Made by a program: the position numbers and the translations under genes
Part shown: piece by piece, positions 28,201 through 64,000 of the stretch
Numbering within the stretch: the first letter of the stretch is position 1
Layout of the letters: the number at the start of each line of letters is the position of its first letter
Source: Amoebophrya sp. A120
Lineage: Eukaryota; Protista; Dinoflagellata
Direction: 5' to 3'
NCBI GenBank assembly: GCA_905178155.1
Contig: CAJINV010000003.1
Location: forward strand, 3,715,600-3,779,599
DNA length: 64,000 nucleotides
Notes under the pieces: model-generated
Seen by the model: only the letters and a program-made list of their open reading frames with translations
Told to the model about the DNA's origin: nothing
Databases searched by the model: none

Positions 28201-29607
28201 AAAAGGTTCCCAGCTGCTGCAACATACTGGGGCTCCCGCTGGTCAGCATGCTCGGATCTCCGCTTGCGAGTGCGGTCATTTTGGCTGCCGGATCGTCCCC
28301 GCTCGCGCCCGCGCACATAGCGGTTGCATCCGCCATAGCGCTGGTGTAGGCGGCGCTACTGGGGATACCTTAAGTGCAAAAGTCTATCAGATTGCCTGGT
28401 CGTGTGCCAGCAGAAATTTTCTATAAACACATCATTCCCGATGTTGATCACCAGAAAATCATAGGAGGAAGCCGCTCTTTGTCGTCGACATCTTTAACGC
28501 AGCAGAGCGATACCGTACGTGGTCGCGTACGCAATTTTTGTGCCCTGGTTACAAATATAGTTTCCCGCCCCGACGAAGTCCATCATGGCCTGAGCGTTCA
28601 TCGCAAAAAACTGCTTCTCATATCCTTCAAGCGCCCAGCCTGGCCCGTCTGCTTGGGCGTTCCAAGGATTGAAATTCCCGTTCGAGCCGCAAAAACCGCC
28701 CTTCCAATCGCGCGGAGCAGTCAACCGGACCGGATCCCCGTCACCGCCGATGGCAATCCCCATGATGATGATGAAAACCACCTGGAGGTGTAAATTTTTG
28801 AAATGCATGCCACATGCGCATCGCCTTTCCGGCGCCCGATAAGGAAATATTGGAAGCGTCTTCTTGCAAATGCGTGTTGATAATTGTTCACCTAGAAAAT
28901 CAATGCGTGACCACCTCCCTTAGTACCCAGTGCGCCGCGAAGGCGATGAGACAGAAGATATCCGTGCATCCTCGGTTTTTCACCGGCCCGTTGGAGCAGT
29001 CGTTTTCCCCGCCCTTTTATCAAATGTAAAAGTGTCTGGGTCTGGAAGATTGCAACTTGTTATGCTAAATCTGCAGCATGCAAAAATCTGTGCTGCATGA
29101 TTACCAAAAGTCGTCCAATTTTGACCAAGTCGGGAGGTAGTTTCTCATGCAGGATAGGCATTAGAAAGGTCTCGCAGAGTCTCAATCTGTCATGCTAGGT
29201 CCTGCATTCCAGACCTCATGGGTCATGGAAAAGCAGCATGACAAATCGCGCATTCTTCCAGACCCAGACATTTTTTCATTTGATACCTTTTCTAAGGGCT
29301 TGTCTTCGGCCGGGTTGGCGTCCGCAGTCGGCTTTTCGTCTATGACCCGCTCAAACGTTACAATCTCAAATGTTACAATAGAATCTGGATTTTGTGTTGC
29401 ATGATGAGCATGACAGACCCGCACTGCGTTCCACTTTCTGCATTACAAATTTCGCCAGATTCTACTGCGGTTTGGGACTCCTGAACTTGTCATGCGCAAT
29501 GCCGTGGGAGTAGGCTAGGCCATGCACCTTTTGCATCACAGATTTTCATATTCTATTGTAACAGTTGAGATTGTAACAGCTGAGCGGGTTATATCGTCCT
29601 CCGACAT
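25210..29607 (-). CDS. Choline transporter-like (CTL/SLC44) protein; six GT-AG introns plus three introners
   Basis: Spliced model MSEDEKPT..EKGGENDCSNGPVKNRGCTDIFC.., CTIAGAVAVWYF, RYHFGSLCFGAFIL, KFLNKNAYIQIAILGKNFCRSA, DTTLQCFVADEE, ending KGFLKDPNQKGKMCCCK* (stop 25210-25212). Confidence 0.93.
25256..25473. mobile_element. Introner family B, copy B2 (218 bp)
   Basis: TATGCAAGTGCACAACTCCCCCTCCC / GGGAGGGGGAGTTGTGCACTCTCATA. TSD TCAGG/TGAGG (4 of 5). Lies near the C-terminus of the CTL gene. Confidence 0.92.
29018..29285. mobile_element. Introner family A, copy A4 (268 bp)
   Basis: Family A TIRs. TSD CCTTT at 29013-29017 and 29286-29290. Removal joins the 5' exon in frame to the CTL GP.KNRGCTD exon. 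Confidence 0.95.
29341..29593. mobile_element. Introner family C (253 bp)
   Basis: ~44-bp TIRs TATGACCCGCTCAAACGTTACAATCTCAAATGTTACAATAGAAT / ATTCTATTGTAACAGTTGAGATTGTAACAGCTGAGCGGGTTATA. TSD TCGTC. Inserted in codon 5 of the CTL gene. Confidence 0.95.
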
Positions 29608-30506
29608 CTTGCCCGCCCCTGGAACAAAACTACACCTGCGCCAAGAAGTACCACTGTACCACTCAGTCTCTCCTACTGTCAGTTTTTACACAGAGACAGC
29701 AAGTGAGGAAAAAATAATTCAGCAATAGAAAAGGAATGCGTATCCTCTGTAGGAAAGAACCGGAGACGCAAAGTGCGGACTCGCACTGCAATCAATCTCG
29801 TGCGGAGCAGATAGTTTTTTCCCTCACTCTCATTCATTACACGTCTTCCAGTTGCTTTTCTGAATGATTTCAGCAAGATGACCGCCATGTTGTATCCTGA
29901 GTGTTCACGTTCTAGAAAAAACCCCTCCTCTCTTTCACTCCTGTGACCCTGAATCAGGTTGATTCCAATACCAATGAACAAGAGGAATACGACACAAGGG
30001 CTTGCTCATTCGGAAAATACAGGTTTTTTTTTCGACGTTCGAAGCCGCATGATTGCAAATCGGTATTCTCGTACAATAAAAGCTTCTGCTCAGTAGCAGC
30101 AAGGCTACTGTAAAAGCAAAGTTTTCCGGGTATTCTCAACGGCATCCAATAGTAAGTACCTCAACAACTGTCTCTTCCGTGACAAAGCCACAGAATGAAT
30201 TTACCTTTTAATACGTTTACGCGTTGTACATAAACTCTCACAGAGACTCGAAAGCTCACAGTATCATCATTCAACGGAATAGTTCACAGTTCGCTACAAA
30301 GTTCAAGTTCAGTTTGCGAAAAATACGATTGACCTGTATTCCTACGTCGATATAATTGCCCATAGAATCACGTTTCTTGCTGCCAGCCGCTGCTTCCCGA
30401 TGATGCGTCAGAAGTCCAGCCCTTGCAAGATCACGACTGGAACAATCCGCGCTTTTGGCGCAAGACCGCAACACCCGAAGAGACGAGCAGCCGGGTACTC
30501 ACTAAT

Positions 30507-33500
30507 TTACACCGCCCGATCAAGCATCGGAATGCCTAAGACCTTTTCACGCACCCGCGCAAAGGCGTCTCCGTGTCCCCCGTCGTGAAAGCGCTTGTCC
30601 CCGAGCGAAAAGTCGTCGAAGTACAGCGGGCTTTCGTACACGATCTTAGGTGCTTCAAACAGCTTGGGCTGAGGATTGAAGTGCATTTTGGGCATGATCA
30701 AGAAGGGCTTGGTCCCAGACAGTTGAGAGGAGCGTCGCGCGGCCCCATTGCTGCTCATGCTCATCCCGCCGAACCCGGTCGAGTTCCTCGTGCTGCTGGT
30801 CGGCAGGTTTGGATTGCCCAGTACCAGCTTCTGCGCGGCGCTGCTTCTTCGCGCGGACAGCTTTGGTTTGTTGTTCCCCTCCTTGTTCTCACCATTCGCG
30901 TTCCCCGAGACGCGGTTCATCTGCACATTCATATCGCTGTTCCGGTTGTGCAGGTTTGTCTCGCTGTTTCGCACGTAACGGGACAGCGCGTCGTCCTCTT
31001 GATACGCCAGCATGGATGGGCTGCTCGGCGTTACCGATGCGAATTCCTCGTTTTCCGGAAGCTGTTGTACTAGCAACCCAGTGGGGGACGAGGGCGCGCC
31101 GGAATGGTTGCTTCCCGTGGAATTCCGCCGTCTGGGCGGTTGCTGCGGCCCGGCATTGGACGGCGCGGAGGGGGTGTTACTGTTGCTATTACTACCGCCC
31201 CGGGAGAAGTAGCTGGATATTCGCTCGAAAATCCCGGCGGGCGGCGCCGCGGGCTCCTCCTCGTCTTCCTCGGGAATGCTTTTATGATTATAAAACTGCT
31301 CGCCGGGCATCGCCGGAATGTTGTCCGGTGCGGATATCCGGGCCAGCGCTTCCAGCCCGAAGTCCGGCTCGTCCTCCTCTTCGTAGATGGTTTGCTCCTG
31401 CAAGGACCCCCGCCCGAAGCACGGGTTGTTGCTTTGCTGCTCCGTCGGGCTGCTGTGCTCGATCCGGAGCAGGTCGTGCTGAAATTGCTGTCGCAGGATA
31501 TTCTTGTCCTGCTCCGACATGCGCGCGACCACGTGCTCAAACGTCGACTGGGTGTCGCCTCCGCCCGCGTCGTCAGCTGATAGATGATATGGTTTATTGC
31601 ACAGTATCAAATATGAAAGAACTTCGCAACAAATGAATCGCAATGGCAAGAACCGCGGTACAACCTTACTTCCTCAAGAATGCCTGCAGTAGACACAAAT
31701 AGAACCAATACCTCCCTGCGTCGTCTCTCGTTGCGACGATGTTGCGGACGACCTACGGTTGTATTGGGAGCTGTTCTATCAAATGTAAAAATGTCTGGGT
31801 CTGGAAAAGTGCGCGATTTGTCATGCAGCTTTTCCATGACCCATGAGCCCAGGAATGCGGGACCTAGCATGACAGATTCTGTGCGATCTCTCTCATGCCT
31901 ATCCTGCATGACAAACTCGCTCCCGACTTGGTCAAAACTGGACGACTTTTGGTAATCATGCAACACAGATTTTTGCATGCTTCAGATTTAGCATGACAAG
32001 TTGCATTCTTCCAGACCCAGACACTTTTACATTTGATATGTTCCGCCCGAGGTACTGGGACTGGCCCAGACGGGACGCGCGGTCAGACGGTCTGGAGTAT
32101 CCTATGTAAAAACATCCCCACCCCAGAGTTGTCATGCAGATTTTATTTTTTTGATTGGGCCCCGCTCTGTTGACGCATATAAATTCATCACTAAAACTAG
32201 GAGGCCGGTGTGCGTTACTTAACATGTGAAGCAGCTCTACGAATTCACCTGCCTGCCGCAGCAGGTCAAACAGGGCCGACACCTTTCACACAGTTAAGCA
32301 GTGCGCGTGTATGCGTGCACTTTTCATCTTGTTTTGATATTCTTACTATCTGCTCTTGTCCTCTGCTCCAGCACATTGCACTGCGCGTCTTGTTCTCGCT
32401 TCGCTTGCGTTTTCCCCCTCCTCCCCCGCGTGCGTGTCGTATGTCCGCGCTAGCAGGCAGATCTTCGCTTTTCATAGTGTTTTCTTCTAAACTTAGTGTC
32501 TGTTAGTCTGTATCTAGTTGCTAGTCTGTGCTGAAAAACTGAAATAAAGCGAAGCGGAAATCTTAAAGAGCTTACGCTTGACTTCAAATCGTGCTAGCAT
32601 ATTGTTTCTATTTCTCATCCCCACAACCCACGACCAGCCTCTGCTGGAAAAAAAGTTCCCTGGTGTGTTTTTTAATAGTCACAGCGGGGGGGGGGAGACC
32701 ACATTGGTCTCCCCCCGCACGAAATTTGTGATGCGCATCCCTATGATGGGCATTTCCAGTCGTGCAGATTTGCGATGACAAGAACATTTGTGATGCGCAT
32801 CCCTATGATGGGCATTTCCAGTCGTGTTTTGGAGTTTGTAATGCTGTAAACAGGATACGCATCTCGATTTGTGATGCGGCTGTCCCTGCTAACCTGCACT
32901 ACACTACGGGCTGCAACTTGTCATGCGTGGCGTCCAAACCTCCAGGATCTGTGTTGCAGAGATCCCAACTTAACTATGGTGTGGGGACATTTTTACTCAG
33001 GATATGGAGGAGGAGGCATTCGAGACGGAGCTGCGATTCGTGAAGACCGCGTCCGACTTCGGCAGTTGGGAGACGCGCTTGTGCAGTAAATTCATGTCGA
33101 TATCGTAGTCTTTTGTGATAACGCGGTTCGTTTCCACGGCCGGTCCGCCAGCACTACTCCCGCCGCCGGCACCACCGCCTACACTGCTGGCCGTATCCGA
33201 GGCGGCTGCGGAACCGTAGGAATCCCGTTTGTGGCTCTCCGCGCTCTTCCGGGCTTGACCTGCAGGTTCAGGTCGGTAGGTAGAAAAGCGGGATTATATT
33301 AAAACTCTTGTGGATGAAATATCTGCGCGAATTGCCTGTAATATTCTCCGCGCGCGCACGACGCAGAACTCCTGCGTTCTTGGTCTTTCGATATCTTAAT
33401 ATCATCTTGGCAAAGATAAGATGGATCACTCTGCGGCAAGAAATGCCGAAGCTAGCAAACGCTTTGAACGTGCCAAAATGAAAAAGCGCAAGCAGTACTT

Positions 33501-35272
33501 TTGTCTGACGTGTTGCTGATGCGGTCCACATAGGGTTTCTCCGCCTCGACTTGAAGCGACTTTCGTCGCGTTTCGTGCTCGCCGGACTGGTTGTACCAGC
33601 GGTAGCCAACCTCTGGCCCCTTCCCAATTTTGTCCCGGTGGGCGTGGGAGCTCGCGATGCTCTCACCGACATCTTCCACCAGCTGCTGCCGCGTACCGTC
33701 GACGGAATTCATCGACCTTCGGGCAACCCGCGTTTTGCAACGGATCATCAGCTCCGAGCCGTGCCCGATGCCTGGTTTGTGAACAAAAAAGTGTGCTGCG
33801 ATAATTAAAAAATGTCGCCTGCAAATAAAGATAAACCTTACCCTGGGTTCTTCGCAACGAAGTGTGGCAAGACAAAATTTCTTAAGTAGCAACATTCTTT
33901 TGTTGGAGTGAAAGTGAAACCACTCCTATGAGTATACCAGCCCTCCGCAGCGACGCGATGGGATTTGTGATCGGAATTTTGTTGTACCACAACTTCTGGT
34001 CTTTGACAGGTATTCCCGTCAGCTCTTGTATGCGCAGCTTTAAACTATCCTGCTGCATCAGCTGCATCAGATAGTCTTGTTCGGCGGCCGTGTCTGTTTG
34101 GAAATAAATGGTTTTTCTTTCTGGCTGATTTGCTCACACAACTTTGTGTCGTCGTGATCAAGAAAAAATTGTCAACAAGCAGAGGTGATTTATTCGACAT
34201 TCATTCTACTAGCCTACCTGTTTTGTTCTCCGCATTCTCTTCTTCCCGCTCTCCAAAAATCTCAGTGAACCGGTTGCGCTGGGCATTGGCGGGAAGCGCA
34301 CCTCCAATCATGAGCTCGCGGTGGACCCAAAATGCCAGACCTGTTGTGGCGTTTTATGTCCGACAATTCATTGGAGGCGACGCAATTTCAACCGAATAAA
34401 GAACGGTTGCGAAAGAAATCTCAACTATACGCAAACACCGCAAGAAACACAGGCAAAACGGTTGGGCAAAATGATGAAAATACGGTCCCCACTGAGCGGG
34501 AACTTGACGTAGATGCGAATGAGGTCGTCCGGCGCGCAGCAATTTCGCTTTCCCGTGGCGTGGCAGCTGATTGCATCGTGGCGCTCGACCTGGCTCAAGG
34601 GGAGTCCAAGGTGGGGACGCTTGCCGCTGGACAGGGTCGTCACTGTGCCGTTCCGCCCCGTCGAAGTGGCGCTCGTTCGCGTGCCGACACCGTACCTCGA
34701 CAGATAAACAAAAGCGAAGTAGATACCACTACCTATGCGGACGATTTAAGGCCGACGCGCTTGGACGTCGTCGTCGAAAAATAAAATTTTTCAGTACTAC
34801 TGTCGTGTAAAAAAATTTTCAAAAGAAAAATACGAGCCAGTCCATTCGGAATGTCTCGTGGTCTCCGTTTGCTTGGTGGCGTCGACCTCCGTATCAAAAG
34901 GAAAAATCCCCCCTCCCCATATCGAAACGAAGTCTCTGATGCTGGATTTCCGCACACAGGGCAGATTTGTCTTGCAGTGGAGGACTGTAGGCATACGCCA
35001 AGCCGCAGCCGAGAGGTTTTGACGTAGGCGCCTAGCATGGCGAACGTGTATGCTCTAAGCCCAACAGCATCACAAACCGCCTGCAAAATGTGGGGCGCTC
35101 CGTGGTCTTGCCTTCTTGCAAGCCAGACAGGATTTGAGGCCCCAAATGCGCATCACAAATTTTCAGACGGATACGTTTTCAAAATGGGGAGAGGGGATTT
35201 TTTCGTACGATACTCCGACTGCCGTGTCTGAATGTAGTCCAGCAGCTGGTCTTCCGATTTCAGTTTCTCCAT
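30507..35272 (-). CDS. Multi-exon protein with a ubiquitin-like domain and a long disordered C-terminus; three introners
   Basis: ATG at 35272 (MEKLKSED). UBL-like segments IRIYVKFPLSGDRIFI, LKLRIQELTGIPVKDQKLWYNKIPI..SLRRAGI and GHGSELMI. In-frame joins across D1 (QSE-VDAT), F1 (SSS-RPSD) and A5 (GRN-SSQY). Some exon borders are uncertain. Confidence 0.65.
31777..32038. mobile_element. Introner family A, copy A5 (262 bp), close inverted relative of A4
   Basis: Family A TIRs. TSD TGTTC at 31772-31776 and 32039-32043. Confidence 0.95.
32098..33004. mobile_element. Introner family F, copy F1 (907 bp; carries a ~0.6-kb internal insertion)
   Basis: TATCCTATGTAAAAACATCCCCACCCCAGAGTT / AACTATGGTGTGGGGACATTTTTACTCAGGATA. 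TSD TGGAG. Segments 32098-32143 and 32772-33004 align with the reverse complement of F2. Confidence 0.92.
34892..35212. mobile_element. Introner family D, copy D1 (321 bp)
   Basis: TATCAAAAGGAAAAATCCCCCCTCCCCAT / ATGGGGAGAGGGGATTTTTTCGTACGATA. TSD CTCCG. Confidence 0.93.
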
Positions 35273-35875: not shown

Positions 35876-38679
35876 TCATGTTGTTTGCAGCAGCGGGCCA
35901 TTGGTTCTCTCGACCGGGGTAGGGGGCTTTCGAATTTCCGGCCGTCTTTCCGACGTCTTGATCAGGGTTTTGCTCGGACTGTTGTTCACCGCAGACTGTC
36001 CCTTCGACGTGCTTCGGCTTTCCACCGTTATGTCCGAAGCCTGGGAAGCTGTTGTCGACGCGCCATCGTTCCTGCTGGTAGCCATAGCAGGTGGCAGCTT
36101 CCCCCGATCGCTTCCACCTCGATCCGGAGGCACAAAATTTCCGCTCCCCGCCGAACTGCGTGACGCTTTCGCCGCAGCTGGATTTTTGTGTAGTATCTAT
36201 TTGCCATTGCTTATCCGCGGAGCCGCGCTTGTCCCTACTTTTTCCATCAAAAACATTTCGAACCCAGATCCCAATGATGTATCGTGTGTGAAGACTGGAG
36301 AAACAAGCTATTCTAGAAATCTATACCTTGCTTTCCCGCTGGCGTCGGCGGCTGGGACATGCGTTTCGGCCCCGCCGCGCGTTTCCTAGGCCCGGTGGAC
36401 GAGGAACTCGAGGCTGGCGCGCCTTCGTCACCCGTGCCCGCCGCGGCCCACGTACCAATGGCCTGGTTCAGCACGAGCCAGGGGGTGGGCAGGGCGGCCT
36501 TCATCAACGACTCCCGCTCCACGTTCGAGCACCCGATCACCGTGCACACGGCGGGAATCAGGGACTGCGCCTTCATGTCGCCCTTCTGCGCGTACTCGCA
36601 GTACTTGTACACCACCTCGCGCAGGTAGGCCTTGTCCACGTTCGCATCGGACATGATCTCCAGCTCCCGTATCCTCTTCTTCATGCCCACCTGCTCGTCG
36701 TTGTTCTTGCGCATCTTCTGCTCCATCTCCCGCACCTGGAACCGCAGCTTCCGCGTCTCTTCGCCCTGCTCCCGGAGAATCAGGTCGCGGTTGGCCTGTT
36801 GTTGACAAGTGGGTGGGTAGGGATAATTTTTGCTTGTTTTTATTTATGATTTGAACTCCACGACCGGTTGCTCTTTTGCTGTAAAAAGACAAGGATCCAC
36901 GCTCACTGTGTACTATAAAGAATTTCCACTTCTCACAAGATGAACCCGTGCCAATACACTAATTGCGACCACAAACCTGCAATTCTGCGGCCTTGGTGAT
37001 CATGCGGCTTGTGTCGAGCTCCTCTTCCATTTTCGCGATGTCATGCTCCATCTTTGACATTTGTTTCTCTTTTGTGCTCAGCTGCTCGGTATACTGGCGC
37101 TTTTCCTCGGCGTGCTGGCTTTTCACGGACTGTAGCATGCGCTGTCCGAGCTCTAGCTCCGCGCGGTACGATCCCTGTTTTTAAGGTATCCATCGCGAAA
37201 GGTTTAGAATTCATAGCATGCACAAAAAGCATCAATACTGGCAGTTTAAAAACATCTTCGTTCCCGGCACCAGCACATAAGAAGATATTACGCGTGAAAG
37301 TAGATTTTGGCCCCGTGGAAGGTGAGTAAACATACTATAAGTACGTCGATCTGGTCGCACTTCGACGTGAGCGCCAAGTTTTCCTGCTGCAGCTGTTGAA
37401 TCCTCTGCTCGAGGTCGCGCACGCGCCCCTGGTCGACTCCAGAAGCAACTACACCGGGCGCTGCTCCCTGATCCGTCGCACCACCACTGGAGGACGATCC
37501 CGCGCCGCCGGATTGCATTTTGCTCGTCAGCTGCTGCGCTCGGTTGTTGTTCTGCGCCCGAAGGTTTTGGATTTGCAACTGCAAATCCTTGTTTTCCGCC
37601 TTCAGGGACCGGTTCTGGCTCTCCATCGCTTTCACGTTTTGGTTCGTGTTCTGCATGTTCTGCTGTGCTACAATGTTGGCCTCCTGCAACGACCGGTTCT
37701 GGAGTTCCTCCAACATGATCCACTTCGCGCGGAGCTGCGCCTCCAGAGTGGCCGTCTGGTCCGAAAGCATCTGCTCGGCCTCATTGGGAAAGACCAATCG
37801 CACAAAGTCGCGTAACACGTTCAGCTCGCGGTCCTTCCCCTCCAAGGACTCAATCCCCGGCGTAAGCAGCTCGAAATTTATCTGGGATAGAACAACAATA
37901 GTTGTAGGGAACAAGCACAACTTCAAGAACAAAATGATCTTCGGACAGAAGCAGAACGAACACGAAATTTGTCCTGTGCACCAGTCGCAAAATAAAGCAT
38001 TTATGCAACGACCCAGAGAGCAAAACCACAGAGTAGATCCATGATGATCTTGGGCCTCTTAGTACCGGCGTCTCCTGCGCTGCCGCCTCTTCGAACGCAG
38101 TTTCGGGATCCGGCAGCAGCAGTTTGCAAAACCGCAAAAAGCTTGCGCGATCTTCATGCAATATCTTGTTGTATGGATGTGTCAGGATCGAAATCGACAA
38201 AGTCGGAAAATTTGTGACGCATAAAATGCAGGGCACTTGAGGCCTGTATTGGGGAGCAGGCAAATGAGACCGATTGTGAGCCTGTTTAGGGGTATGCAAT
38301 GTGCTGCAAGAGTAGCATGACAGGAGCAGTCTTCTTTGCCCAAACAGCATGACAGGCTGGATTTGGGTGCTGCCGAAATTTGTCATGCGCCACTAACAAA
38401 CTGAGGATCTAACTGGTATCGATTTTATGCATCACAAGTTTTTCGACTTTGTCAATTTCGATTCTGACACTTCCCTATGTTGAAGCGCAGTAGTTTTACG
38501 TACCGGTCCTCGATTTTGTCTAGCTTGGCCTCCACCGTCTTCAGTTCCTTGTCTTTTTTCTTGATCAGCGCAATCAGGGTCTCGCGTGGAACTTGGCTCG
38601 AGGAGCTACTCGACGCAGCACCATCTCCGCTGCCAGTCGTGGCGCTCGGCTGGCTGCTCGAGCCCGCAGCGTCCGACAT
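35876..38679 (-). CDS. GRIP-domain coiled-coil protein (golgin-like); last exon uncertain (stop at 36313 or 35876)
   Basis: Coiled-coil exons joined by GT-AG introns and element G (LRFN-KILHEDR). C-terminal VDKAYLREVVYKY..SLIPAVCTVIGCSNVERESL fits the GRIP pattern. Confidence 0.8.
38172..38477. mobile_element. Introner family G (306 bp)
   Basis: ~56-bp TIRs beginning TATGGATGTGTCAGGATCGAAATCGACAAAGTCG and ending CGACTTTGTCAATTTCGATTCTGACACTTCCCTA. TSD TGTTG. Confidence 0.94.
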
Positions 38680-39162
38680 TGCAGCCCCGGTAGGTAGTTG
38701 TGTTGGCGGTGCAGAAGGGCAGAGTCACTCGCGGCCTCTTTCGATTCTTGTCGCACGCCGCGTGACCAGCGCACCGAACAAACTTTCAGCAGCGCTTCTA
38801 ACGTGCAGCAACACGACCGCCCATTTTTTTCACAGTGTCGTTGCGTCGACCGAAAGAAATACCAGTAAATTGCTTTATATTAGGCGGACACATCACTTTT
38901 TAGAACAGTGGATCTTCGTTCGGCCTGCTGGAAGTTCGGAGAAAGCTGAACAACCATCGGGGCTCAGCGCTTACGTGCCAAGTGGCACTACCGCACCAAA
39001 CAGGTCGCAAGTCCGCCGGAGCATTCCAGCTCTGCGGCGACGTAGCTTATATCAGACAGGGTAAAACCAAGAAGATGCGCAAGAAAAGTCGATGAAGCCG
39101 CGATGAATGTCACTACGACTTCTTGTTTTTATGACTTGTTCGTACAGGAGCTTCGTGGCGAT

Positions 39163-41874: not shown

Positions 41875-44800
41875 CTAATCCCCTTGGGAGTCGTCAATGT
41901 AGTGCAGCGTGTAGAGAATTATGCAGCGCCAGAGCTTGATGCAAAACTTTTGCGTCTCGTCGTCGAGAAATTTGTCCAGCTCCGCCAGCATGTCGTCGGT
42001 CGTCATTTTTTGCGTCTTCACCTTCTGGACCACCGAGTAAATGTAGTCAATCACAGACGCCTCCTCTTTGTCGTACAGCTCTTTCACCTTCTTCGTGATC
42101 CACGGCTTGACCTGTGAGAATAAAATGAACAGATTACACCAACTGCATTTCGACTTTAGTATAGGAGTGGGACTCATTTCATCTACTTCCTTTCCAAAAA
42201 AAAATGAAGACTACAACAGGTCGGCCGAGCCAATCAAGTCCTCGTCGCTAAAGCAGTGCGCTAAAGTAGTGCGCTAAAGTAGTGCGCTAAAGTAGTGCGC
42301 TAAAGCAGTGCGCTAAAGCAGTGCGCGAAAGTGCGCCAAAGTAGTGCGCTAAAGTAGTGCGCTAAAGCAGCGTGCTAAAGTAGTGCGCTAAAGCAGCGCG
42401 CTAAAGCAGTGCGCTAAAGCAGTGCGCTAAAGCAGTGCGCTAAAGCAGTACTAAAGCCGTGCTACCAGCATGCGAGGCAACCTAGCTGCGAAGCACTCTG
42501 GCTAGCCAGAGCGAAGCACTTTGGCCGCAAGCGTCGAAAGCAATTTATGCGTAAATAGACCTATACCTTTAACTCCAGTAATTCGTTTTTGTCGATGATT
42601 CCCCAATTGATCGGGTAGTCAAAGACTGCGTCGCCCTCGGGAATGGTTTGGATCAAAGCCTGCAGATCTTTCTGCGGGCGCGCCCTCGACGGTTCATCCC
42701 GATCGCCCCGTCTATTGCTGCGCTCCCGGCTGTGCCGTCGCCGTCCCCTCCGATCGCCACTCGGCGACCGCCGCCGGCGCCGCAGGTCGCTTGTGCCCGT
42801 CAACCGTTCGACGGCTTCTCGCGTTTTGCGCTCCTCGTCTGCTTTCAGTCGCTGTTCCAACTCCAGCTGTTCCTTCCGAATCGCTTCCTTCTCCCGCTCG
42901 GCGTTCTCCTGTCGTTCCTTTTCCAGGTCCTCCTCGTCCTCGTCGAGTTCGCGTTTCATGTGCTGCTTCATTCGGGCTTCCAGCCCGGGGAAGGCCCGTC
43001 GCCGCGACCGCCGGGGCCGGGGGGCGCGAGCCAGGTACAGGTCCGTACGAACCTGGTCCTTTGCGAGCAGCTCCGCTCGACGATCCGACATCCGCATGTC
43101 CGCTGTAGTTGATTTTGGGTGTGGTTTTTTCTCATTTCCGGGGCTTGTTGCTTTGTTCAAGTTCATCTTGCTGAATCTAGGCACTCAATAACAATTGTAC
43201 AAAGACGTGTGTCCGCAGTACTTGTAAAGAATCAAGCAGTGATTTATACCGTCAGCTATTCTGGTGACCGTTCCCGAGGACGACTCCGTGACCTGGAGCC
43301 GCTTCAGCTCGTCGCGGAATTCCTGGAGCTTTTCTTGCTCGCGTCTCTCGAAATTTCGAACAGCGGTGTCGTCTTCCCGACGTTGCCGTCGCTCCTCTTC
43401 CGCGATGCGTTCCTCGCGGTCTCGCTCCTGGAAACAGTTGTCGATCAGAAGGGTGAGCAGGAGTACTAGACCCCATTTCTTATTCTAGAGAACACCCGGC
43501 ATGTAGTCTGCTGGGATTGGAAAAGCACAAGCAGCTCACGACAAAAAAATAAAACCACGATCATGTTGATGTCCTGTATACGCATGCAAGGTCTTTTCTT
43601 GCGAAGAAGTATCGGTAGTGTAGTACCTTCCGGTGTGGCCTTCGGTTTTCGGGTTTTTTCACGGGGTCTCGTTCCTCCGGCTCTTTCTCCTTGTCTTTCT
43701 TAGCCGCTTCGTCCCGCTTCCCCTTTGACTCGGCCAGTTCCTTTCTGATGCGGGCCAGGTCGTCCGCTCTCCTCTTCTCGTCCTCCAACTTGCGCTTACG
43801 CTCCTCGAGGGCGCGCTCCTGCTCCTGAATCTTGCGCTCCCGCTCCTTCCGCTGCTCGGGAGTGACCGTCTGCAAAAATTGCTCGTACTCCCGGTCTATC
43901 AACTGCAAATATGTCTGGGTCTGGGAGATTGCGAGATTTGTCATGCTAGTCTGGCATGACTCGAGAATCTGTGTTGCATAGGCACAAAAAGGCCCTCTTG
44001 CCTGTCATGCAAAAACGCAGTTTGCCATGCGGAATACGTAAGACATGGCTGCCAAAGAATTTGTCATGCGTAGCTGCGTATTGCAGTGCGTCTATCATTA
44101 ACTTTTAGCATTACAAGTTTCCAGACCTAGACATTTTTGCATTTGATACGGTCTGCGGCCGCAATATTCTCTAGTAATGCCGTGCGAACCGTGTCCATTT
44201 CGCTCGCCAGCAAAGAGTCCACCTCGTCGTCAGCCATTGGAATCATCTCGATATCTGACCCATCGCTTCCCTCCTGAGTTTGATGTTTTTGGGTAAAGTT
44301 GAGGCTAGTTAGTAGTAAAACACGATAGGGACGGCAATTATCAGCGGTGAACATTCGTTTCCCTGATATCTGGATACTTTACGCCGTAGTACGGGAGTTT
44401 TCGAACAAAACTCTATGAATGAAGCTGAGTTGTACCTCTAGCCCCGAACAACCAAAGCGGATATTTTTCAAAAAAACCTTCTGTACCTTGACCCGGGTCT
44501 TTTGGCAGAGGTTGGGGTTGGCTTCCCGGAATTTTGTGCGCTCCTCCGCTCGGAACTCTTCCAAATCCGCCTGCATCTCGGCGGAGACTTTGAGCATCAA
44601 AGACTGGTTCAAAATTTTCATGGCGGGCAGCCCTTCTTTTTCGACGTCCCCGTTGAGAAAGGTCATCACCGCGTTCACCTCCCGTATGTTGCCGAAGTGG
44701 CAAAACGCGAACTTTGCGGGCACGTTCGTGACCGGGTCGGTCTGCCGGTCCCATTTCACGATCCGGCCGCAGCAGCCGAAGATGGCCCGGAGGGACTCGT

Positions 44801-46859: not shown

Positions 46860-48900
46860 CTTTTTGCCGCGCAAGCGCGCAACCGAGCGCAATGCGCATC
46901 AAGGCGCGTGCGCTGCGGGCCCCGGAAACACACGATCAGCCCTTCCTCGTCTTTGCAGAGGGGGGGGGGGTCTCTGGTGGAGGACGGGGGGCGTGGGGCT
47001 TGGCGCCCTCTAGGTCGGGCCGGCTCCGAAAGAGAAAGAGGGCCTTGGAACCAGGGCCGGCTCGGCAAGGCGCGAGCGGGCCCGGGCAAGCTTTCCAAAC
47101 CTCGCCCCGGGGCGCACACCGCGGGAGGGCCGACTGGAAGTGTAAAGCGCGGAGGCCATGCCCAGACGGCGCAGCACAGTCCGGCGCCCGTTGCAGCATC
47201 TGAAGCGCCACGGAAATCGGCTTGTCGGCGCCCCTCCGCCCGCCCGGGGGGGGGGGATAGGAAGGGGGGAAGGGGCCGACGGAGGGCGTTTCCGTCGCAA
47301 AGGCCTGCACTTTGCAGGGGCAGGGTGCTGCGGTAGGTGATGCCGTAACTCTATTGAGTGCCATGCAGGCTCCTCTTCTATGGTAGGAAGTAAATCACGT
47401 CGATCGTGTATGGTTTTCTGTTGTTTTCCCCATTAACTAAAATTGGAAAAGTTCCACACTTTCCAGTGAAGCTGTTAACTTGCAGACAAAACGATCCCAA
47501 TCATTAATAGCCTTGTAGTTTTCTGCATTTTCTGGAGATTAAAAGCTGCAAAAATGCAATCTGCCAGCTTTTTCCTAGACTTTCCAAAAACCGAAAAAAA
47601 AACAGAAAGAATTATAATATTGCCCAAGCTTCTGTAGGTCCACTTTACAATGAAAAAAAGAGACAGATAAGCACGCAGCCACTGATTTGAGTATATTTCA
47701 TCCATTTATATAGATAAACTTTGTGAATTTTGCTCACCCAAAACTTTAAAAAAAAATTTGAAGCTGTGAAAAATATTGAGCCACGTCCCCTGCTGGGTCT
47801 AGAATATACCCAAGTGAGACCACGGCTATGATTTATATTTTGCTACAGTCTTTATAAGGTAAAAAATCATCAAATTTTGGCAATTTTCAAAAATTGAAAA
47901 ATTTCACAAAAAATATCATTTTACTAAATCCATAAAAATTGCACAAAAAAAAACAAGCAAGAGTGTAGCTGATGCAATTATGTATGTTCTTCCTCTTCGA
48001 CATAGAAATAGGGTTCATCTCTGCAGTTTTGTTAAGAAAAAAAAAATGAAAAAATGAAAAATTTTGCAATTTGTGAAAATCTGATCGGATTTCTGTTTCA
48101 CAAAAAAGCTCGAGTGTGTTCATTGTATTCAGTGAGGTATTTGGTATATTTTGTAATCTGGATTACCGCTATTAGGTCACTTTTTCCTCAATTTGATCTA
48201 ATTCCAAAATTTTTAAAAAATTAAAAAATTTTGATGTTGCGAACTTTCCTTGAAAGTATCGCACTACATCGAATTTAGGTAGCATATAGCGTACATTCCT
48301 CATGATGCTGCTTATTAAACGTGGCAAAATCGGACATATTTAGTGCTCTCTCATTTTCAGAAAATCTAAAAAAATCGTAAAACTAGGGTAGGGAGAACAA
48401 GGTGTCCAGATTGTGGGTTCCAACGATGATCGACCGCACGCGGAGCCCCTCCTAGCGTCCAGCAATCGCCTTTGCACCGGCGGAAGCCGTCAGTCTGCGC
48501 GCGTTCGCTGCCTGGCCCGCCCGTGCCGCCTCCGTGGCCTGGTCCGGGGACCCGCCTCCCCCGTGATCCCGAATCGGGCGCCTTTTTCACTGCTTTTAGC
48601 GCGCGTATGCGAACCCGATTCCGGGCGGCGGTGTGGCGCCGCGGTTCTCCCTTCCCGGGGCGGCGCCGGATCCGCCGGGCCACCGAAACTACGTCGCGCG
48701 CTCTTTGTTTCGGCCCGTGCAATTGAAGCGCGCACGCCCGCGGGGGCGCACGGATCCGCGCCCGCCGCCTGCAATCATCGTGTGCCGCCGCGGTCATCCC
48801 GCGACGCGGAGCTACGGGCTTAGGTACCGCTCTCGGAGGACGCGCTCGCTTTTCGGGTCCGCCCTCTGTCTCTTGTGCGACTGGTGTTCTTTTCTGTGAT
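46860..48900. promoter_or_regulatory. GC-rich / AT-rich / GC-rich block in the divergent strand-switch region (function inferred)
   Basis: Sample lines: 47041-47100 and 48661-48720 are each 43/60 GC, while 47881-47940 is 9/60 GC. The block lies between the minus-strand and plus-strand gene blocks. Confidence 0.4.
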
Positions 48901-53100: not shown

Positions 53101-54862
53101 ATCACCCGTTCGGATCGGTCTCGGTGTCATCCATGCATGAATCAATTAAAAGAGTGGTGGTCACAAGAACTACAAAGCGGAACAAATAACTTTGAGTCGA
53201 CTCTCACGGAGGCTGGTTGCGCGTAGGCGACATCATGCCGGGGTTCGAAGCTACTTCTACAACGACACACTGTACAAACAGGTACAAAAACCACCGCGGA
53301 CGGCGAGCCCAAACCCGAAGAGCAGCGCGAGCTTCGCGTCGACGAGCGCGGGGTGATGATGTTTATGCAAAAACCCACGAACGCACCTAATATGATACCG
53401 GGATATCAACTGCAAATGCTGTGTCTGGGTCGGGGAGGCTGCAGAAGTTTGTCGTGCACCTTTTTCATACTTCATCAGCCCGGGAATTTGGGGCTTAGCA
53501 ACACAGAGTCGTGCCAGTTCTTTCTTATGCGTGTCGTGGATACAAATCGTCCTTGAATAAAATCAATAAACTTGACCGAAGGCGGGCATATTTTAATAGT
53601 CACGCAAGACCACGGATGTTTGCGTGAACCAGACAAAGGACAATCAGAAATTGCAACGCTCTGTCAGACTCAGACCCAGACATCATATTTCCAATGCATA
53701 CCCGACCTGGTAGAGCCATATCAATATTTGACTTTTTTCTTCGTATACTGTTACTCGATGTTGACAAATGTATAAAGCTGGTTCTTCATCGAGACCTTGC
53801 ATGTCAAGCCTCCAATGTTTTTGCAGGGCCTTCGCCTATGAATCAGATGCCGGGCGGTGGCATGATGGGGCCCCCCGGGGGCATGCAGCCACACCAAATG
53901 CAGCAACAGCCGATGAACACCAGTCCCTTCGCAGCACCCCAGCAGCAGCCGGGGCATAATATGATGAATCCCCTACTGGGCATGAACATGATGGCGAAGG
54001 GCGGGCCCAATCAGCATCCGCAGATGCAATTGCCACCGCAGATGCAGCCGGGCGGGCCGCAGATGCAGAACAACCCCGCGATGCTGGGGCTGAATCCTTT
54101 GGGAAACAATCCGAACCTGCTCCCGGGCGGGATGCCCGGGGGCGTCCTTCCGCAGCAGGGTGGACTACCGCCCGGAGCGGCAGGCAACAATCCGCTTCTC
54201 CAGATGCTGAACAATTCCGGAGGGGGAAATCAGCAGCCACTGCCGATGATGGGCAATCCCATGATGGCGGGCGGACCGCAGCCGCCAAGCCCAGGCATGC
54301 CGCAGCAGCAGCTCCAGCCGCAAGGACTTCTGCCACTGGGAGCAGGTCCCCAAGGCGCACAGCCCATGATGAACAACATGCAGGGACTGATGCCGATGAA
54401 GGGAAATGCGGCGGCCGCGCAGCCCCCGGGAAGTCCGAATCGCGGGCAGCAACAACATCCCGCGCAACTCATGCCACTACCCCCGCAACAACCCGGCGGG
54501 GGCGGACCCCTGCAGCAGCAGCCGGGTAGTAACACGCTGCAACCGCTTCCCATGAACAACAATAATCCGATTGCCAACTTGCTGCAGCAGGGGCAACAAC
54601 AAGGGCTCCAGCCGCCCCCGGTCCCCCCAACCGGTGGGACCCCGGGTCCGCAGCCCGGCCAAACCCCCGGAGGTACTTAGACTGTTTCTGAGCTTTCTTC
54701 TGAATGACCTGGGTTCTTTGACAACTGTTTGATGGTCTTCTCTTCGCCGCAAAAAATTCTAGAATCAAATATGATTCATTTTCAAGATTCGCGATTCGCA
54801 TCTGTTGTATAATATAAGGTGGAGGTGGACCTCCAAGCGGTGACAACAGGAAGGGCACGTGA
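50169..54862 (+). CDS. Pro/Gln/Gly-rich multi-exon protein with one CCCH zinc finger
   Basis: Low-complexity ORFs 50169..51479 and 53694..54680 plus small GT-AG exons. C-x17-C-x5-C-x3-H at 52545-52631. Last exon ends with TGA at 54860-54862. Start codon uncertain. Confidence 0.7.
53404..53700. mobile_element. Degenerate family-A-related introner, copy A9 (297 bp)
   Basis: TATCAACTGCAAATGCTGTGTCTGGGTC ... GACCCAGACATCATATTTCCAATGCATA. Flanks CGGGA/CCCGA (3 of 5). Removing the element plus 5 bp restores the frame (NMIPG-PG..). Confidence 0.75.
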
Positions 54863-56542: not shown

Positions 56543-59500
56543 ATGAACAATCGAAAGTCCTGGTCGGCGAAATGCGGTGGAGCACTCTGCGAGGCCGTGT
56601 CGTGCGAGATCTTGAAATTGGTGCTGCAGAGTGACCAGCAGCAGCGTGACGCGAGCGCGGCTGCGGGTGTTCCGACGGCGAGCAGCTGTCCCGCGGTCCT
56701 GCGGTGTGTGGTGCGGCACTTTCCGGACTTCGTCTCGACGTGGCTGGGCCGCCCGAATTCCGGCGTGCGGGTCGCAGCCAAGGAGGCGTCAGCGGAAGGA
56801 ATCCAGCACTTCTGCCGGTACGTGTGCACGACGCTGGTGCTGCAGCCCGATGTGCTACTGAATGTCTGGATCTTGCTCCAAAGGTACTGCGCGCAGCGGG
56901 CGCTTTTGCTCTCCTCCGGCGGCGCGAGGAGCCCGGGCGGGGGCGGGACAGCAAAGCCGAGTACTTCGGCGCGGTATCATGGAAAGACCGACAATATTCA
57001 AGGAAAACATCATGATGACCGCACGAATAAAATACCAAACAGCAGTGCTGCTCTCGCCTTGGGGAAAGAGTCCTGGCCACTGCTGCTAATCGCCGCTGTG
57101 ATGAGCGCGCTACCCGCGTACGAGGACCACGGACCCTCGCTGTACGAGTACAGTGTCGCGGTCAAGGAGTGGCCCGGGTTTTCAGAGCACTATGGGTTGC
57201 GTCTGAAGAAAAAAAGCACGAGCACTTGCTCCGCTGGAGCTGCGCCGCCTTCGTTACTTCACAAACAGGACCAAGTACGACGACAACCTCCCGCGTGCTT
57301 TGGGTGCGAGACCGCAGAGGCCGTGTTGGTACGGGTCTTCTTCAACCACCCGGCGCTGTTGCAACGGAAGCTGTTTAGCCGCAAGAACCTGTTGCACGCG
57401 CAACTGCATTTTCTCGAGGTGGTTCAGTATCGCGTGTTCGTTCACCCCGACGTCTGGACGACGCAGTATGAAAAGTTGCTCCAGGTTGTACAGACTGGCG
57501 ACAAAATGCAAAACAAAGACAGCATCGACCTTTTACCTGAGCATGATGACAAGCTGTCGACCTTCTCCGATGAAGATCGCGAAAACGACAACAACTACGA
57601 TGTACGGCTCGCACCTGTTGGGAGTCCTCTGCGCAGGAGCGTGCAGATAAAACCCCCAGAACCCGCGGAATTGCGCGAAACGCGCTTAGAAATGTGGGCA
57701 ACGTCTCGGGAGGATGACAGCAACTGCGTCCTCGGCGTAAACACTTGTGAGGAAAATAGGCACAGAGCGAATGCTGGCTCGGGTCGTTTGCAGACAACGC
57801 GCTGGAGCCACGAGCACGCCGGTAGGGTCTCCGCCGGAACTGCACTCGCGTCGCCGCAGAGCGGATACGACTTGTTGCGGTCAACATCTGGGAATAGAGG
57901 AAGGCGGAGCACAAAACAGGGAGAAATTTTCGCTGACGGCGCCAACGTAGAAGTACCAAACGGATTGATAGCAGGACAACTTTCCCGCCCGGAGGACATG
58001 TTTGTGACTGCTCACGATGTTGAAGACACCGACGTGGTGCCACCAGCGGTTGTTGCAGATCATGACCTACACCAGCAGACAGCAGCACTGTGGAACCGAG
58101 AGAGCTATGAACTGCAAAAGTATCGTACTAGTGTAAATTGCAATACAAATTTCCTTAGCATGAGAAATGGAATTTGTCATGCGGATTTGCCTTGATAAAA
58201 CGATTTGTAATGCAAGACTTGCATCCATACGAGTACGATACTTTTGCAATTGATAGGAGCCGCGGTTTTCTGGATCCCGACATTTTCTCCTCCAGCGGAG
58301 GAGACATCAGCGACGACGACGCTATCGTGAGGAAAAATCCCCCTTCCCCATATCAACAAGGTATATTTTTGGAAATGTGTGATGCTGATTTGTGGTCACA
58401 AACCGTGTCTGTCTTGCAAGAAGGCAACTGCGCAGACAGCCGCCGCATTGTGCAGGCGGTTTGCCATGCTGTTGGGCCTACAGCGCGGAGGTTTATCATG
58501 CTAAGCGCCTAGGCCAAAACCTCTCTACTCACGCTTCGTATGGGCCTGCAAAGCCCTCCAGCAAGACAGCTCGGATTTGTGTACAGAAGTCCAGCATCAG
58601 AAGTTTTGTTTTGATATGGGGAGGGGGGATTTTTCCTCACAATAGACGCGAATGGCTGTTTGGCAGGTCCTCCCATTCACAACCAGCGTCCCGCATCTCC
58701 AGTGTCTTCGCGGTGTCGTCGTCGCGCGTCAGCTACGTCGAGGGCGGGTGTCGGGGCGGCGGGCCGCCTTTCGAGTGGTTTGAGAAAAGTCAAGAGTACG
58801 ACCAGCGGAGCAGGTGGACGAGGGCTCATCAAACCGTCTCCCAGTTCGCCATCGCAGAAAATACTTGTGCCGGAGCAAGATCGCGGCTCAACATTGCTGG
58901 GCCCCCTTGCAGGAGCTGCGCGTCTGTCTAGCGGGATGAAAACAACTTCTGGGGTATTGTGAGGAAAAATCCCCCCTCCCCATATTCAGAACGTAGCCTT
59001 CTGAAAATTTGTGATGCAGATTTGTGATCCCAAATCCTCTTTGTCTTGCAAGGATGCAAATCCAGAGAGTCCGCCGCGTTGTAGAGGCGATTTGTAATGC
59101 TGTAAGACCTACGGGGCAGTTGTCTGCCATGCTAAGCGCCTACACCAGAAGACCCCTACCCAGGCTTAGCATCTTCGTGCAGTGTTCTACTGCAAGACAG
59201 ATCCAATTTGTGTACACAAATCCCGCACCACAGATTTTCGTTTCGATATGGGGAGGGGGGATTTTTGATGTTGATATGGGGCGAGAAACACTCATCGGAG
59301 TTCCACCACCGCCCTCGCGATCGAGAGCAACAACTTGAATCTATCCTGTGTAAAAACGTCCCCACACCAGAGTCAAGATGGGGATTTTGCAACACAAACC
59401 TGGAAGTTTTGGGACTCATGCATCACAAGTTCCAGTCCGTAGTGTAGTGCAGGTCAGCAATGGCAAACGCATCAGAAATCCATCTGCTTATCCTGGTTAC

Positions 59501-60329
59501 AGCATTACAAATGCCAAAACACGACTACAAATTCCTCTCATGGGGATGCCCATTACAAATGTTCCTGTCATTGCAAATCTGCATGACAACTCTGGGGTGG
59601 GGACGTTTTTACAAATGATAGAATCGGGTCAGCGACCAAGTTCCCAGCCTTCCCAGTGCCTCGCGCTTCTTTCGGCGGAGTCGGAGCGACCACAACTGCA
59701 GTTACAACAGCGCCGCGTCCTTGCAGCTGGCGCGGCAGCGCAGCGGAAAAGTGCATCCGCTGCTCGCGGCCAAGGAGGGCAGCCGCGAGATGTCCCAACG
59801 CAGTCTGGTGTCTTTGTGGCGCGAGAAAGCCTCCATGCCCATGTTTGTAAACGAGGACCCCGCGGAGGAGCCGGAAGGTGTGCTGTCGCAGCAGCGACTC
59901 CAGCAAATCCGGCAATCGCTAGAGGACCTGGACCGCGCGCTCGGCCGCAAGAATTCCCATTCCGTGGACGAAATGAGCGTTCGGCAGAGTGAGGAACTCT
60001 CTCGGCGGCTGTTCGAAAACAGTTGCGCGACCGGCGGTGGCGGGGCTTGCATTACTACATCAAAGGGAACCAAGACAAATCATACCACACTCGCGGAGTG
60101 CCGCACCACCGCCGGCACGATGAGCTACCGGGCCAGTTTGTTGGCAAATAGTACGACTTCCGAAAGTTGTAGTAGTACTCTGCGGGAATCAACAGCGCTG
60201 CCGATGTTCTTTTCGGCAAACAACAACTTCATAGCATCTCGGAGCGCGTCGAATTTCATGCTGGTCGGATCGAAGGTCTCATTGGGTACCGAAAACGCAG
60301 ACCCTGAGACGGACGAAACGGAGCACTAG
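56543..60329 (+). CDS. Divergent cyclin-box protein (cyclin Y/P/Pho80-like N-terminal half, disordered C-terminus), ~897 aa after removing four introners
   Basis: IQHFCRYVCTTLVLQPDVLLNVWILLQRY..WPLLLIAAVMSA..NLLHAQLHFLEVVQYRVFVHP resembles a cyclin N domain. ORFs 56543, 58174, 58660 and 59721 join into one frame (3787-1093=2694 nt). Confidence 0.7.
58106..58255. mobile_element. Introner family E (150 bp)
   Basis: TATGAACTGCAAAAGTATCGTACT / AGTACGATACTTTTGCAATTGATA. TSD AGAGC/GGAGC (4 of 5). Confidence 0.9.
58323..58644. mobile_element. Introner family D, copy D2 (322 bp)
   Basis: TATCGTGAGGAAAAATCCCCCTTCCCCATATCAA / TTGATATGGGGAGGGGGGATTTTTCCTCACAATA. TSD GACGC. Confidence 0.95.
58955..59276. 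mobile_element. Introner family D, copy D3 (322 bp)
   Basis: TATTGTGAGGAAAAATCCCCCCTCCCCATAT / ATATGGGGAGGGGGGATTTTTGATGTTGATA. TSD TGGGG. Confidence 0.94.
59342..59620. mobile_element. Introner family F, copy F2 (279 bp)
   Basis: TATCCTGTGTAAAAACGTCCCCACACCAGAGT / ACTCTGGGGTGGGGACGTTTTTACAAATGATA. TSD GAATC. Confidence 0.95.
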
Positions 60330-62093: not shown

Positions 62094-62435
62094 TGATACC
62101 CTTTTGTCACAGACGGATACTAGTAATCAAATCCGTTTTTTTTCACCCGCACACGTGAAGATGAGTAAAAATGTAAAAGCGAAACAGAAATAAAAACGCA
62201 CTCGAGCTGCAAAGTGGCTGTCCCATAACAGCTCCTACCGGAAGCTGCTTCGGTTGATCCGTGATGGTGTTCAGCTTCTCCGTAGTTTTGTTTTAGTTGT
62301 CCGTCGTGAATTTACGACGAAGACAAACCGCGCCATCTCAAGTACAAATGTTGTCTGTACCAGATATCGAGCTCGTCACAATGTGGAGCCCTCGTATGTA
62401 GAGGCGATTTTGTTTTGATCTTCGATCGAGGAATC

Positions 62436-64000
62436 ATGTCAACTATTCCGGGAGACGGACGGCAGCATCAGCATGATCTTGCAGGCGACCCTCCAACTCA
62501 CATCTCTGCTTTCAGCCTGGTTGTGCTGTTCGCGCTGTGGGTGTTTGCGCACGCATGGGGTTGCTTATTCCGTTACGTGATGAAGACACCCCCACTGCTG
62601 GGCTACCTCCTGGGGGGTATTTGTTTCCGCAACGTGGGCGGTGCCGCACTGCATTTCGCACAGGCGAAGGTGAGGCAGTCACTAATACATGACAACAGCA
62701 GGACAACGACCAAACCTGGCGGCCCCCCAGCGGCCGGAGATGCGGAACAAGCGAGCCAAAACCTCACTTTGATTCCCGCAGATATTTCGTCCCTCGTGCG
62801 CACGCTCGGGCTCGCCACTATTCTCATGATTGCGGGATGCGAGATCGACTACCAGAAAATCCGGCGGATGGGCGGCATGTGTCTGCGGCTGACCGTGCTT
62901 CCCGGCGTGAGCGAGGCCTTTGCCGTGGCTCTCGTATCCATGTATGTGTTTGGGTTTTCCCTCGCCTGGGGCCTCGTGCTGGGCTTTATCCTGGGCGCCG
63001 TGTCCCCTGCCGTGGTGTGCGGCGGTATGTTTGCGCTGCAAAAGCGCGGGTACGGTGTCGCGAAGGCGATTCCCTCTCTGGTCGTGTGCGCCGTATCAAA
63101 TGCAAAAATTTCTGGGTCTGGAAGATTGCGAGATTTGTTATGCTGATCTGGCATGGCTCTTGAATCTGTATTGCGTGGCCACAAACAACCTCTCTCGCCT
63201 GTCATGCAAAAACGCAGTTTCTCATGCGGAATACGCAGCACCGAAGCACGAAGCAACTTGTCATGCTTGGCGGCGCATTACAGTGCATTTGTATATTGAC
63301 TGACTTGCATCACAAGTTTCCAGACCCAGACATTTTTGCATTTCATACGCCGCGAGCTTGGACGACGTGGTTGCCATTTATCAAATGCAAAAATGTCTGG
63401 GTCTGCAAGAATGCAACTTGTGATGCTGCATTTGGATGTCTAAAAGATTTGTGTTGCATGAGCAGCAAAAGGAGTCTCACTTTTGCTACGCGGACAGGGC
63501 ATTTGTCATGCGGAATAGGCATCAAGAATCCCTGAAAAAACCTGTGATGCTAGGGCATGCATCACAGACATCATGGCTCATGCAAACCGTGCGTGGCATG
63601 TCTCAAAGTCAAAACCCTCCAGACCCAGACATTTTTGCATTTTATACCATTTCCGGGTTCACCACCTCGCTCGGCGTCGCCATGAGTGACATCATGCCCG
63701 CGGACGAGAGAAACCTTTTGCGGACCCTGCTGGGGCTGCCGCACGTACCTGCGCATCCCAGTTCGCACTTCTACGCGATGCTGCACGGGCCAACCAATTT
63801 GCTGCTCGGCGCGGTGCTGGGCGTCACTTTAGGTGCGGCGTTCGCGAAGCTTTGCCAAACGGACGCAGCGACGGCATCTTCATCATCATCCCGAGGGGGT
63901 CATGCAACCTCTAGTTCAACTAGCTCCTTTTGGGGTAGCGGTTCTTTCTTCGGCCGCAAGCTCCTGGCTGCCCACGCGCTCGCCCGCCGAAACGAACTGC
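62436..64000 (+). CDS. Na+/H+ antiporter, SLC9B/NHA-type (partial, runs off the window)
   Basis: PPLLGYLLGG, RLTVLPGVSEA, LGFILGAVSPAVV and GYGVAKAIPSLV. The conserved AASLDDVVAISGF motif appears only after removing elements A7 and A8. Confidence 0.9.
63094..63347. mobile_element. Introner family A, copy A7 (254 bp)
   Basis: Family A TIRs. TSD CGCCG at 63089-63093 and 63348-63352. Confidence 0.95.
63379..63646. mobile_element. Introner family A, copy A8 (268 bp)
   Basis: Family A TIRs. TSD CCATT at 63374-63378 and 63647-63651. Confidence 0.95.

Follow-up and report, generated by a model that had tools for sequence, protein, structure and literature searches.

Introners of an Amoebophrya sp. 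A120 contig and of sequence sharing their families recur 30 to 90 bp apart, and resident elements may seed new insertions

Introners of Micromonas and Aureococcus reportedly insert in nucleosome linkers, as a 2016 study by Huff is said to have found. The closest described system is the introner set of Amoebophrya sp. A120, with terminal inverted repeats (TIRs) that start with TAT followed by seven loose bases and AAA, short direct repeats (3-5 nt) at the splice boundaries, non-canonical splicing and a length of ~250 bp (PMC7789003, in the parts consulted). The window, that is, the whole 64,000-nt stretch of A120 DNA analysed (assembly GCA_905178155.1, contig CAJINV010000003.1, forward-strand positions 3,715,600 to 3,779,599), held elements that resembled these introners in TIR pattern, boundary repeats, non-canonical splicing, ~250-bp length and multi-copy families. 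Family lengths here (109, 149, 209, 252-262, 279, 308 and 321) matched A120 TIR families among 38 of the 58 rows of PMC12130899 Dataset S2, and TIRs were ~30 bp long here versus the 8-20 nt quoted for A120 introners in PMC7789003. The introner elements themselves were already known. In the portions consulted of the published A120 introner accounts (PMC7789003, PMC12130899), there was no mention of a spacing rule, of chains, of an exclusion zone or of the distal target preference and shared internal motif found here; no prior report of the spacing rule or of family-specific target half-sites, and no paper pairing 'introner' with 'micro-exon', was found in the literature searched; the spacing claim may be touched by supplementary figures S19-S28 of PMC7789003. 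In one A120 gene of PMC12130899 Dataset S3, four of eight consecutive introner starts were 298-330 bp apart, a hint only, with family lengths partly known, and undiscussed by the authors in the text consulted.

Three further systems bear on the comparison. The Micromonas and Aureococcus introners are like miniature inverted-repeat transposable elements and non-randomly spaced, as here (PMC9860276, in part); the present elements differ in that one peak, at 30-90 bp, is linked chiefly to resident elements, and in having no nucleosome-scale periodicity. A120 family 38 is entered in PMC12130899 Dataset S2 as 'Ginger, 5-bp TSD, TA/TA termini', integrase-related, ~810 bp long and with homology to long-terminal-repeat elements, and is described in the sections consulted of the same paper as being without the termini and target-site duplications (TSDs) of true Gingers. 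Compared by description only, family 38 and the elements here share a 5-bp TSD and TA/TA termini, but those here are without such an open reading frame (ORF). Insertion by Tf1/Tf2 is of integrase type, has a 5-bp TSD and is steered by the DNA-bound host protein Sap1 (10.1101/2021.11.29.470382, in part), which is akin to the proposal made below; Tf1/Tf2 is a retrotransposon that targets promoters through a known factor, whereas the elements here go into coding exons next to earlier elements and the factor is putative.

Elements in the window were sought as 5-bp duplications flanking TA...TA with inverted ends, the first two end bases (TA) being preset. The scan gave 16 intact elements (two further low-scoring calls discarded; 0-2 calls in shuffled sequence), and family hidden Markov models (HMMs) added a partial copy (1-152) and decayed copies (20817-21054 and 53404-53700), for 19 window elements. 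The TSD was perfect in 13 of the 16 intact elements, had one mismatch in three and was decayed in two others. Element ends followed the pattern TAT, seven loose bases, then A's, position 3 being T in 97% of ends and positions 11-14 being A in 83-93%.

Ten of the 19 elements were in tight pairs, a count made in the original prediction that holds when partial and degenerate copies are included, and its five gaps of 55, 59, 67, 65 and 31 bp were exact on coordinate check. Introner A4 (fam0, 268 bp, 29018..29285, TSD CCTTT) and introner C (fam17, 253 bp, 29341..29593, TSD TCGTC) flank a 55-bp gap (29286..29340, minus strand), in a minus-strand gene with 3' exons that match Choline_transpo. Introner A5 (fam0, 262 bp, 31777..32038, TSD TGTTC), 65 bp from a canonical intron (31577-31711), and introner F1 (fam3, 32098..33004, TSD TGGAG), which carries a 628-bp foreign insert, flank a 59-bp gap (32039..32097, minus strand). 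Introner E (fam2, 150 bp, 58106..58255, TSD AGAGC/GGAGC with one mismatch) and introner D2 (fam4, 58323..58644, TSD GACGC) are separated by 67 bp (58256..58322, plus strand), introner D3 (fam4, 58955..59276, TSD TGGGG) and introner F2 (fam3, 59342..59620, TSD GAATC) by 65 bp (59277..59341, plus strand), and introner A7 (fam1, 63094..63347, TSD CGCCG) and introner A8 (fam0, 63379..63646, TSD CCATT) by 31 bp (63348..63378, plus strand). A7 and A8 have a common TIR and are 67% identical overall.

Window elements are removed from mRNA as non-canonical introns together with one copy of the 5-bp duplication. RNA evidence consisted of contigs from four runs of one sample, with RNA status guessed by the tool and 15 of 32 joints listed. 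Joints excised the element plus 5 nt for A4 (273 skipped), C (258 skipped), A5, D1 and F1, the last being spliced whole (912 skipped). For E-D2-D3-F2, one RNA contig held 426 nt between 58101 and 59621, exactly 1519-1073-4x5, as follows from the removal of four elements and four 5-nt duplications from 1519 genomic bases. Micro-exons between paired elements were retained in RNA contigs at A4-C (50 nt), A5-F1 (54 nt), E-D2 (62 nt by length arithmetic) and D3-F2 (60 nt by length arithmetic). Among the 15 of 32 joints listed there was none for A7, A8, G or A6. A tendency of micro-exon lengths to keep the frame was rejected (90/67/80 by length mod 3; p = 0.19).

The A7-A8 gap lies in an NHA2/SLC9B-like Na+/H+ antiporter gene and had been said to encode the catalytic DD motif of that antiporter. 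The frame was open after joining and read ...VVCAASLDDVVAISGF..., the 26-nt micro-exon, which is predicted, encoding SLDDVVAI. The exon upstream of A7 matched Na_H_Exchanger and aligned to SLC9B2 residues 172-273, so the DD of the micro-exon falls at 278-279, which we take to be the catalytic pair D278/D279 of NHA2-like antiporters; the frame and the alignment are the evidence for the encoded motif. In the minimum-energy RNA fold of A7/A8 the outer TIRs pair and would loop out the DD micro-exon, which co-transcriptional folding may prevent.

With 19 sites scattered uniformly over the 32.6 kb of predicted exon in the window, 0.64 gaps of at most 70 bp are expected, and the probability of five or more is 2.5e-4, a post hoc figure. 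Multi-kb exons were free of elements, as had been noted: both the 3.1-kb exon at 769-3894 and the 5.7-kb exon at 7978-13674 held none, the latter an unbroken 1899-aa exon of a phospholipid-translocating P-type ATPase with neither element nor intron inside. An independent set was obtained from a metagenome scan with the exact family-A TIR, which returned at least 141 loci (L001-L141), all from one assembly. These loci had no long match to the window, yet carried the same families: 17 of 18 queried window copies had relatives there at 74-95% identity, and 19 families had at least three copies. Merging gave 125 segments (630 kb), and gap statistics were computed on the 65 segments of at least 2 kb (593 kb), with 60 segments below 2 kb (37 kb) excluded; this sample corresponds to ~0.5% of an A120-size genome, is anchored on one TIR and comes from contigs that break at elements. 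The strict set comprised 431 elements and the broad set, with HMM-found decayed copies, 690.

Gaps of 30-90 bp between elements are far commoner than chance, with any family and on both sides. Among the 323 gaps of the strict set, 105 were at 30-89 bp, two below 25 bp and 31 at 120-299 bp, against means of 21-41 (maximum 56), 8-26 and 51-76, respectively, under uniform and jittered nulls. In the broad set, 191 of 506 gaps were at 30-89 bp and eight under 25 bp, and the tail past 140 bp was flat (~3-4 gaps per 10 bp vs ~39 at the peak). The excess was 4.4-fold over the uniform null, 2.3-fold over an exon-only null (168 vs 72.6, maximum 97 in 500) and 1.6-fold over the most conservative null, with the count per exon fixed and an exclusion zone (168 vs 103, maximum 125 in 300). 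It persisted when partners were restricted to those with a perfect TSD (82 of 166) and when the anchor family A was left out (75 of 211). The gap sequences were essentially unique (three weak matches among 233), so the tight pairs are not split composite repeats. The exponential spacing without short-range excess that had been named as the refuting outcome did not occur in these loci; the proposed 30-70-bp peak was present in independent sequence, but its range was wider (~30-90 bp) and the pairs proved to be the short end of longer chains.

Chain counts were 220, 81, 27, 15 and 6, followed by single cases of up to 12 elements. The mean step was constant at 64-66 bp in chains of two to five, and consecutive gaps were uncorrelated (rho 0.09). 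Element sides were occupied equally and independently (left 0.44, right 0.45, both 0.21; p = 0.28). Gap length did not depend significantly on element length (61 bp beside short and 65-67 bp beside long elements; p = 0.08) or on end type (p = 0.51). Pairs of the same TIR were fewer than expected among close neighbours (27 vs 46), but also among distant ones (29 vs 39), and avoidance of same-TIR neighbours is not claimed.

In simulations on the real exon set (deviance over 30 bins, coarse grid), element-seeded insertion fitted best (36), followed by hotspots (64-68), phased nucleosomes (118+) and the hole alone (133+). The best seeded fit had 40-50% of events seeded, at a mean of 60 bp and a standard deviation of about 20. 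That an existing element seeds the next insertion, as had been suggested, thus fits best among the models compared, and on balance resident elements probably seed new insertions beside themselves through a bias that would act at insertion. The alternative of shared hotspots, in which several elements strike the same pre-existing favoured patches of DNA or chromatin, each on its own, and the 30-90-bp peak is what remains once selection has purged very short exons, appears unlikely: besides the worse fit, step length held in longer chains, consecutive gaps were uncorrelated, sides were independent, and jittered nulls down to +/-250 bp reached at most 56 against the 105 observed. It does draw on uneven targets, given the strong coding-DNA bias and the flank sequence preferences, on a hole under 20-30 bp that is present at canonical introns too, and on the drop of the excess to 1.6-2 fold once the counts per exon are held fixed.

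DNA transposons often hop locally, and local hopping or simultaneous double insertion could place two copies side by side. Pair counts already largely refute it, with 16 of 241 close pairs being of the same family versus 26.7 expected and hence no excess; the seven same-family pairs of the strict set were only 71-81% identical, ages of close partners were uncorrelated (rho -0.11), and each partner had its own TSD. This origin is hardly credible. Directional, transcription-coupled targeting was also rejected, since the younger partner was upstream in 53 pairs and downstream in 45.

Insertion in nucleosome linkers, by which both members of a pair would have entered the same linker or used two sites of a single nucleosome, and within which the pairs had originally been framed, is very doubtful here. 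Linker bias has been reported for many introners (PMC9860276, in part), and all-pairs distances had a bump at 180-199 bp (41 vs 26). That bump stemmed from multi-step pairs, nearest-neighbour gaps having no second peak near 180-200 bp; the phased-array model fitted poorly, gaps were not shorter with element length, and the ~10-bp periodicity that had been named as something to look for was missing from both strict and broad sets (no 9-12-bp period; p 0.19-0.57). Dinoflagellates are moreover described as largely without nucleosomes (PMC11453091, in part), and DVNP is listed for both strains in the portion of the PMC7789003 supplement consulted.

Gene calls came from a self-written, self-trained gene finder that was seeded with 10 RNA introns; it recovered these 10 and independently found a 4-nt exon (53706-53709) and its GT-AG intron (53710-53826), which follow the degenerate A-type introner at 53404..53700. 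The join of that exon was seen in two RNA contigs, so very short exons can be spliced and the exclusion zone between elements is not absolute. Predicted coding exons, which made up 56% of bases, held 501 of 536 insertion sites. An element lay 30-89 bp away from 311 of 810 element boundaries (38%), 46 of 333 canonical-intron boundaries (14%) and 26 of 181 coding-sequence ends. Clustering beside any intron, a candidate suggested by three elements of the window that lie 58-91 bp away from canonical introns, was mostly rejected on these percentages and on the 60 vs 54 comparison at canonical introns given below; canonical introns may attract insertions weakly.

Selection after insertion, with random landing and better splicing and survival of copies near another hairpin intron, would yield the same spacing statistics as seeding. 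Paired elements were slightly more diverged than solos (86.3 vs 87.8% nearest identity; p = 0.009), and negative selection on new introners has been reported generally (PMC9860276, in part). About 12 elements were deep in predicted non-coding DNA, and five of them formed one pair (L003; 54 bp) and one triple (L009; 65 and 85 bp), which argues against a pure splicing filter, although the cases are few and could be in untranslated regions. The solo introner D1 was spliced, about a third of elements were solo, and there was no asymmetry between upstream and downstream. On these grounds selection is, like hotspots, an improbable source of the peak.

Counted from the duplication centre, target flanks of ~350 elements in L001-L141 had a symmetric preference for A 15 bp away (49%, z = 16) and for C 13 bp away (43%), with no base preference inside the TSD itself. 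The flank half-site was mostly one-sided (OR 0.47), equal in paired and solo elements, and without clear bias towards the partner (147 vs 131 of 298); insertion phase was uneven (134/92/75). Half-sites differed by TIR family, being C.A for A and E, TC[AT]G for F, T.CA.T for H and TAG for G, with small numbers in minor families, and lay 12-18 bp from the duplication centre. This difference suggests several transposases, each with a putative footprint of at least 18 bp per side. The half-site was rejected as a copy of the element's own TIR, as there was no consistent register and the TIR variant did not follow the flank base.

An internal TGT[CG]ATGC motif was common to all families (for example in the window at 29018-29285), with 19 per kb vs 0.9, and pointed inward. 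Its first occurrence sat 32-33, 40-44 or 52-55 bp from an end, in roughly 10.5-bp steps, and motifs were often 31-33 bp apart, a spacing that suggests a protein binding one helix face. Foreign inserts occurred within introners (window 32135-32763; L033 897-1096; L017, L030, L046 and L048), often at this motif; with direct repeats of 7-10 bp and ends that are A-rich or made of (ATG)n/(ATGA)n, they resemble non-LTR insertions. Over about 200 bp, the F1 insert and sequence adjoining a broken element in L033 are 90% identical. Such inserts are tolerated, F1 with its 628 extra bases still being spliced. Nesting of TAT-type elements amounted to one case in 144 kb of element DNA (L011 1598-2029), where a G-family element contains a TAT...ATA element that is 111 bp long and has an intact 5-bp TSD without mismatch.

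The elements are likely non-autonomous DNA transposons, and would be mobilised by a putative integrase-like (Ginger-type) transposase. Under the seeding proposal, a resident copy of any family would capture some 40-50% of new insertions at a distance of ~60 +/- 20 bp from one or the other of its ends and would shield its own interior and the first ~25 bp outside. A protein on the resident element may tether the incoming complex, or may open the adjoining DNA. The incoming complex would require some +/-18 bp of unoccupied target, and this requirement would fix the near border of the landing zone; each new copy would offer new ends, so that chains would grow stepwise. The version we favour has a family-independent protein factor on the resident element, with distance measured from its end. 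A fuller form, with resident introners as landing beacons for all families, several integrase-like transposases with their own half-sites, a common factor and a ring of 30-90 bp outside a protected zone, so that intron gain would propagate itself and assemble chains of micro-exons as a positive kind of target selection, is tentative and has less than even chances in our estimation.

Several points weigh against seeding. Canonical introns had the hole too (4 vs 16.8 under 20 bp) and possibly a weak pull (60 vs 54 +/- 7, p = 0.21; with nulls conditioned on counts, 49 vs 36-42, p 0.001-0.07). In mathematical terms the seeded model resembles a filter by selection in which copies fare better close to other copies, and the scarce nesting may merely reflect avoidance of all non-coding DNA. 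As a ruler or tether, the TGTSATGC motif was rejected, its position, integrity and number failing to predict the gap (p = 0.57) or the presence of a neighbour (p 0.48-0.79). Whether the TAT or AAA ends were intact made no significant difference either. No transposase or autonomous copy was found in the 630 kb, the ORFs of 13 long elements being at most 150 aa (without a Pfam scan), and no tether factor was found. The model grid was coarse, the age proxies were crude, and the analysis covered 593 kb of one assembly that was selected by the exact family-A TIR and annotated with our own gene finder.

Besides the degenerate copy at 53404..53700, the other window elements outside tight pairs were a partial A-type element cut by the window start (1..152), a solo A-type element (500..761, TSD GGTCG), a solo A-type element with a decayed TSD (20817..21054), a B-type element with an internal 130-bp duplication (21685..22036), a B-type element (25256..25473), and the solo introners D1 (fam4, 34892..35212; 58 bp from canonical intron 34696-34833), G (fam11, 38172..38477, TSD TGTTG) and A6 (fam1, 43897..44148, TSD CGGTC). 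Further copies sought in viral and prokaryote collections gave no matches. The window also contained an array of ~96-bp tandem repeats (4434-7633), non-coding according to the gene finder, and a short tandem repeat of ~13-bp unit (42246-42464) within a canonical intron of an RRM/PWI-domain gene. The segment 46800-48900, which no RNA contig covers, has GC-rich flanks around an AT-rich core that carries inverted repeats (47883-48214), and is possibly another mobile element.

How intron sites are chosen is an open question, for which nucleosome linkers are the standing answer in algal introners. Here, in a lineage that has DVNP, the rule is another and a sharp one: new introns would gather a short, set distance away from transposon-introns already present, whichever their family. 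The rule and the half-sites constrain the transposase and the non-canonical splicing machinery. If seeding is true, positive feedback would convert long exons to micro-exons. Exon medians of 51-53 bp are given for two Symbiodiniaceae genomes in the part of PMC7789003 consulted, and a link of such ~50-bp medians in dinoflagellates to seeded intron gain is a conjecture.

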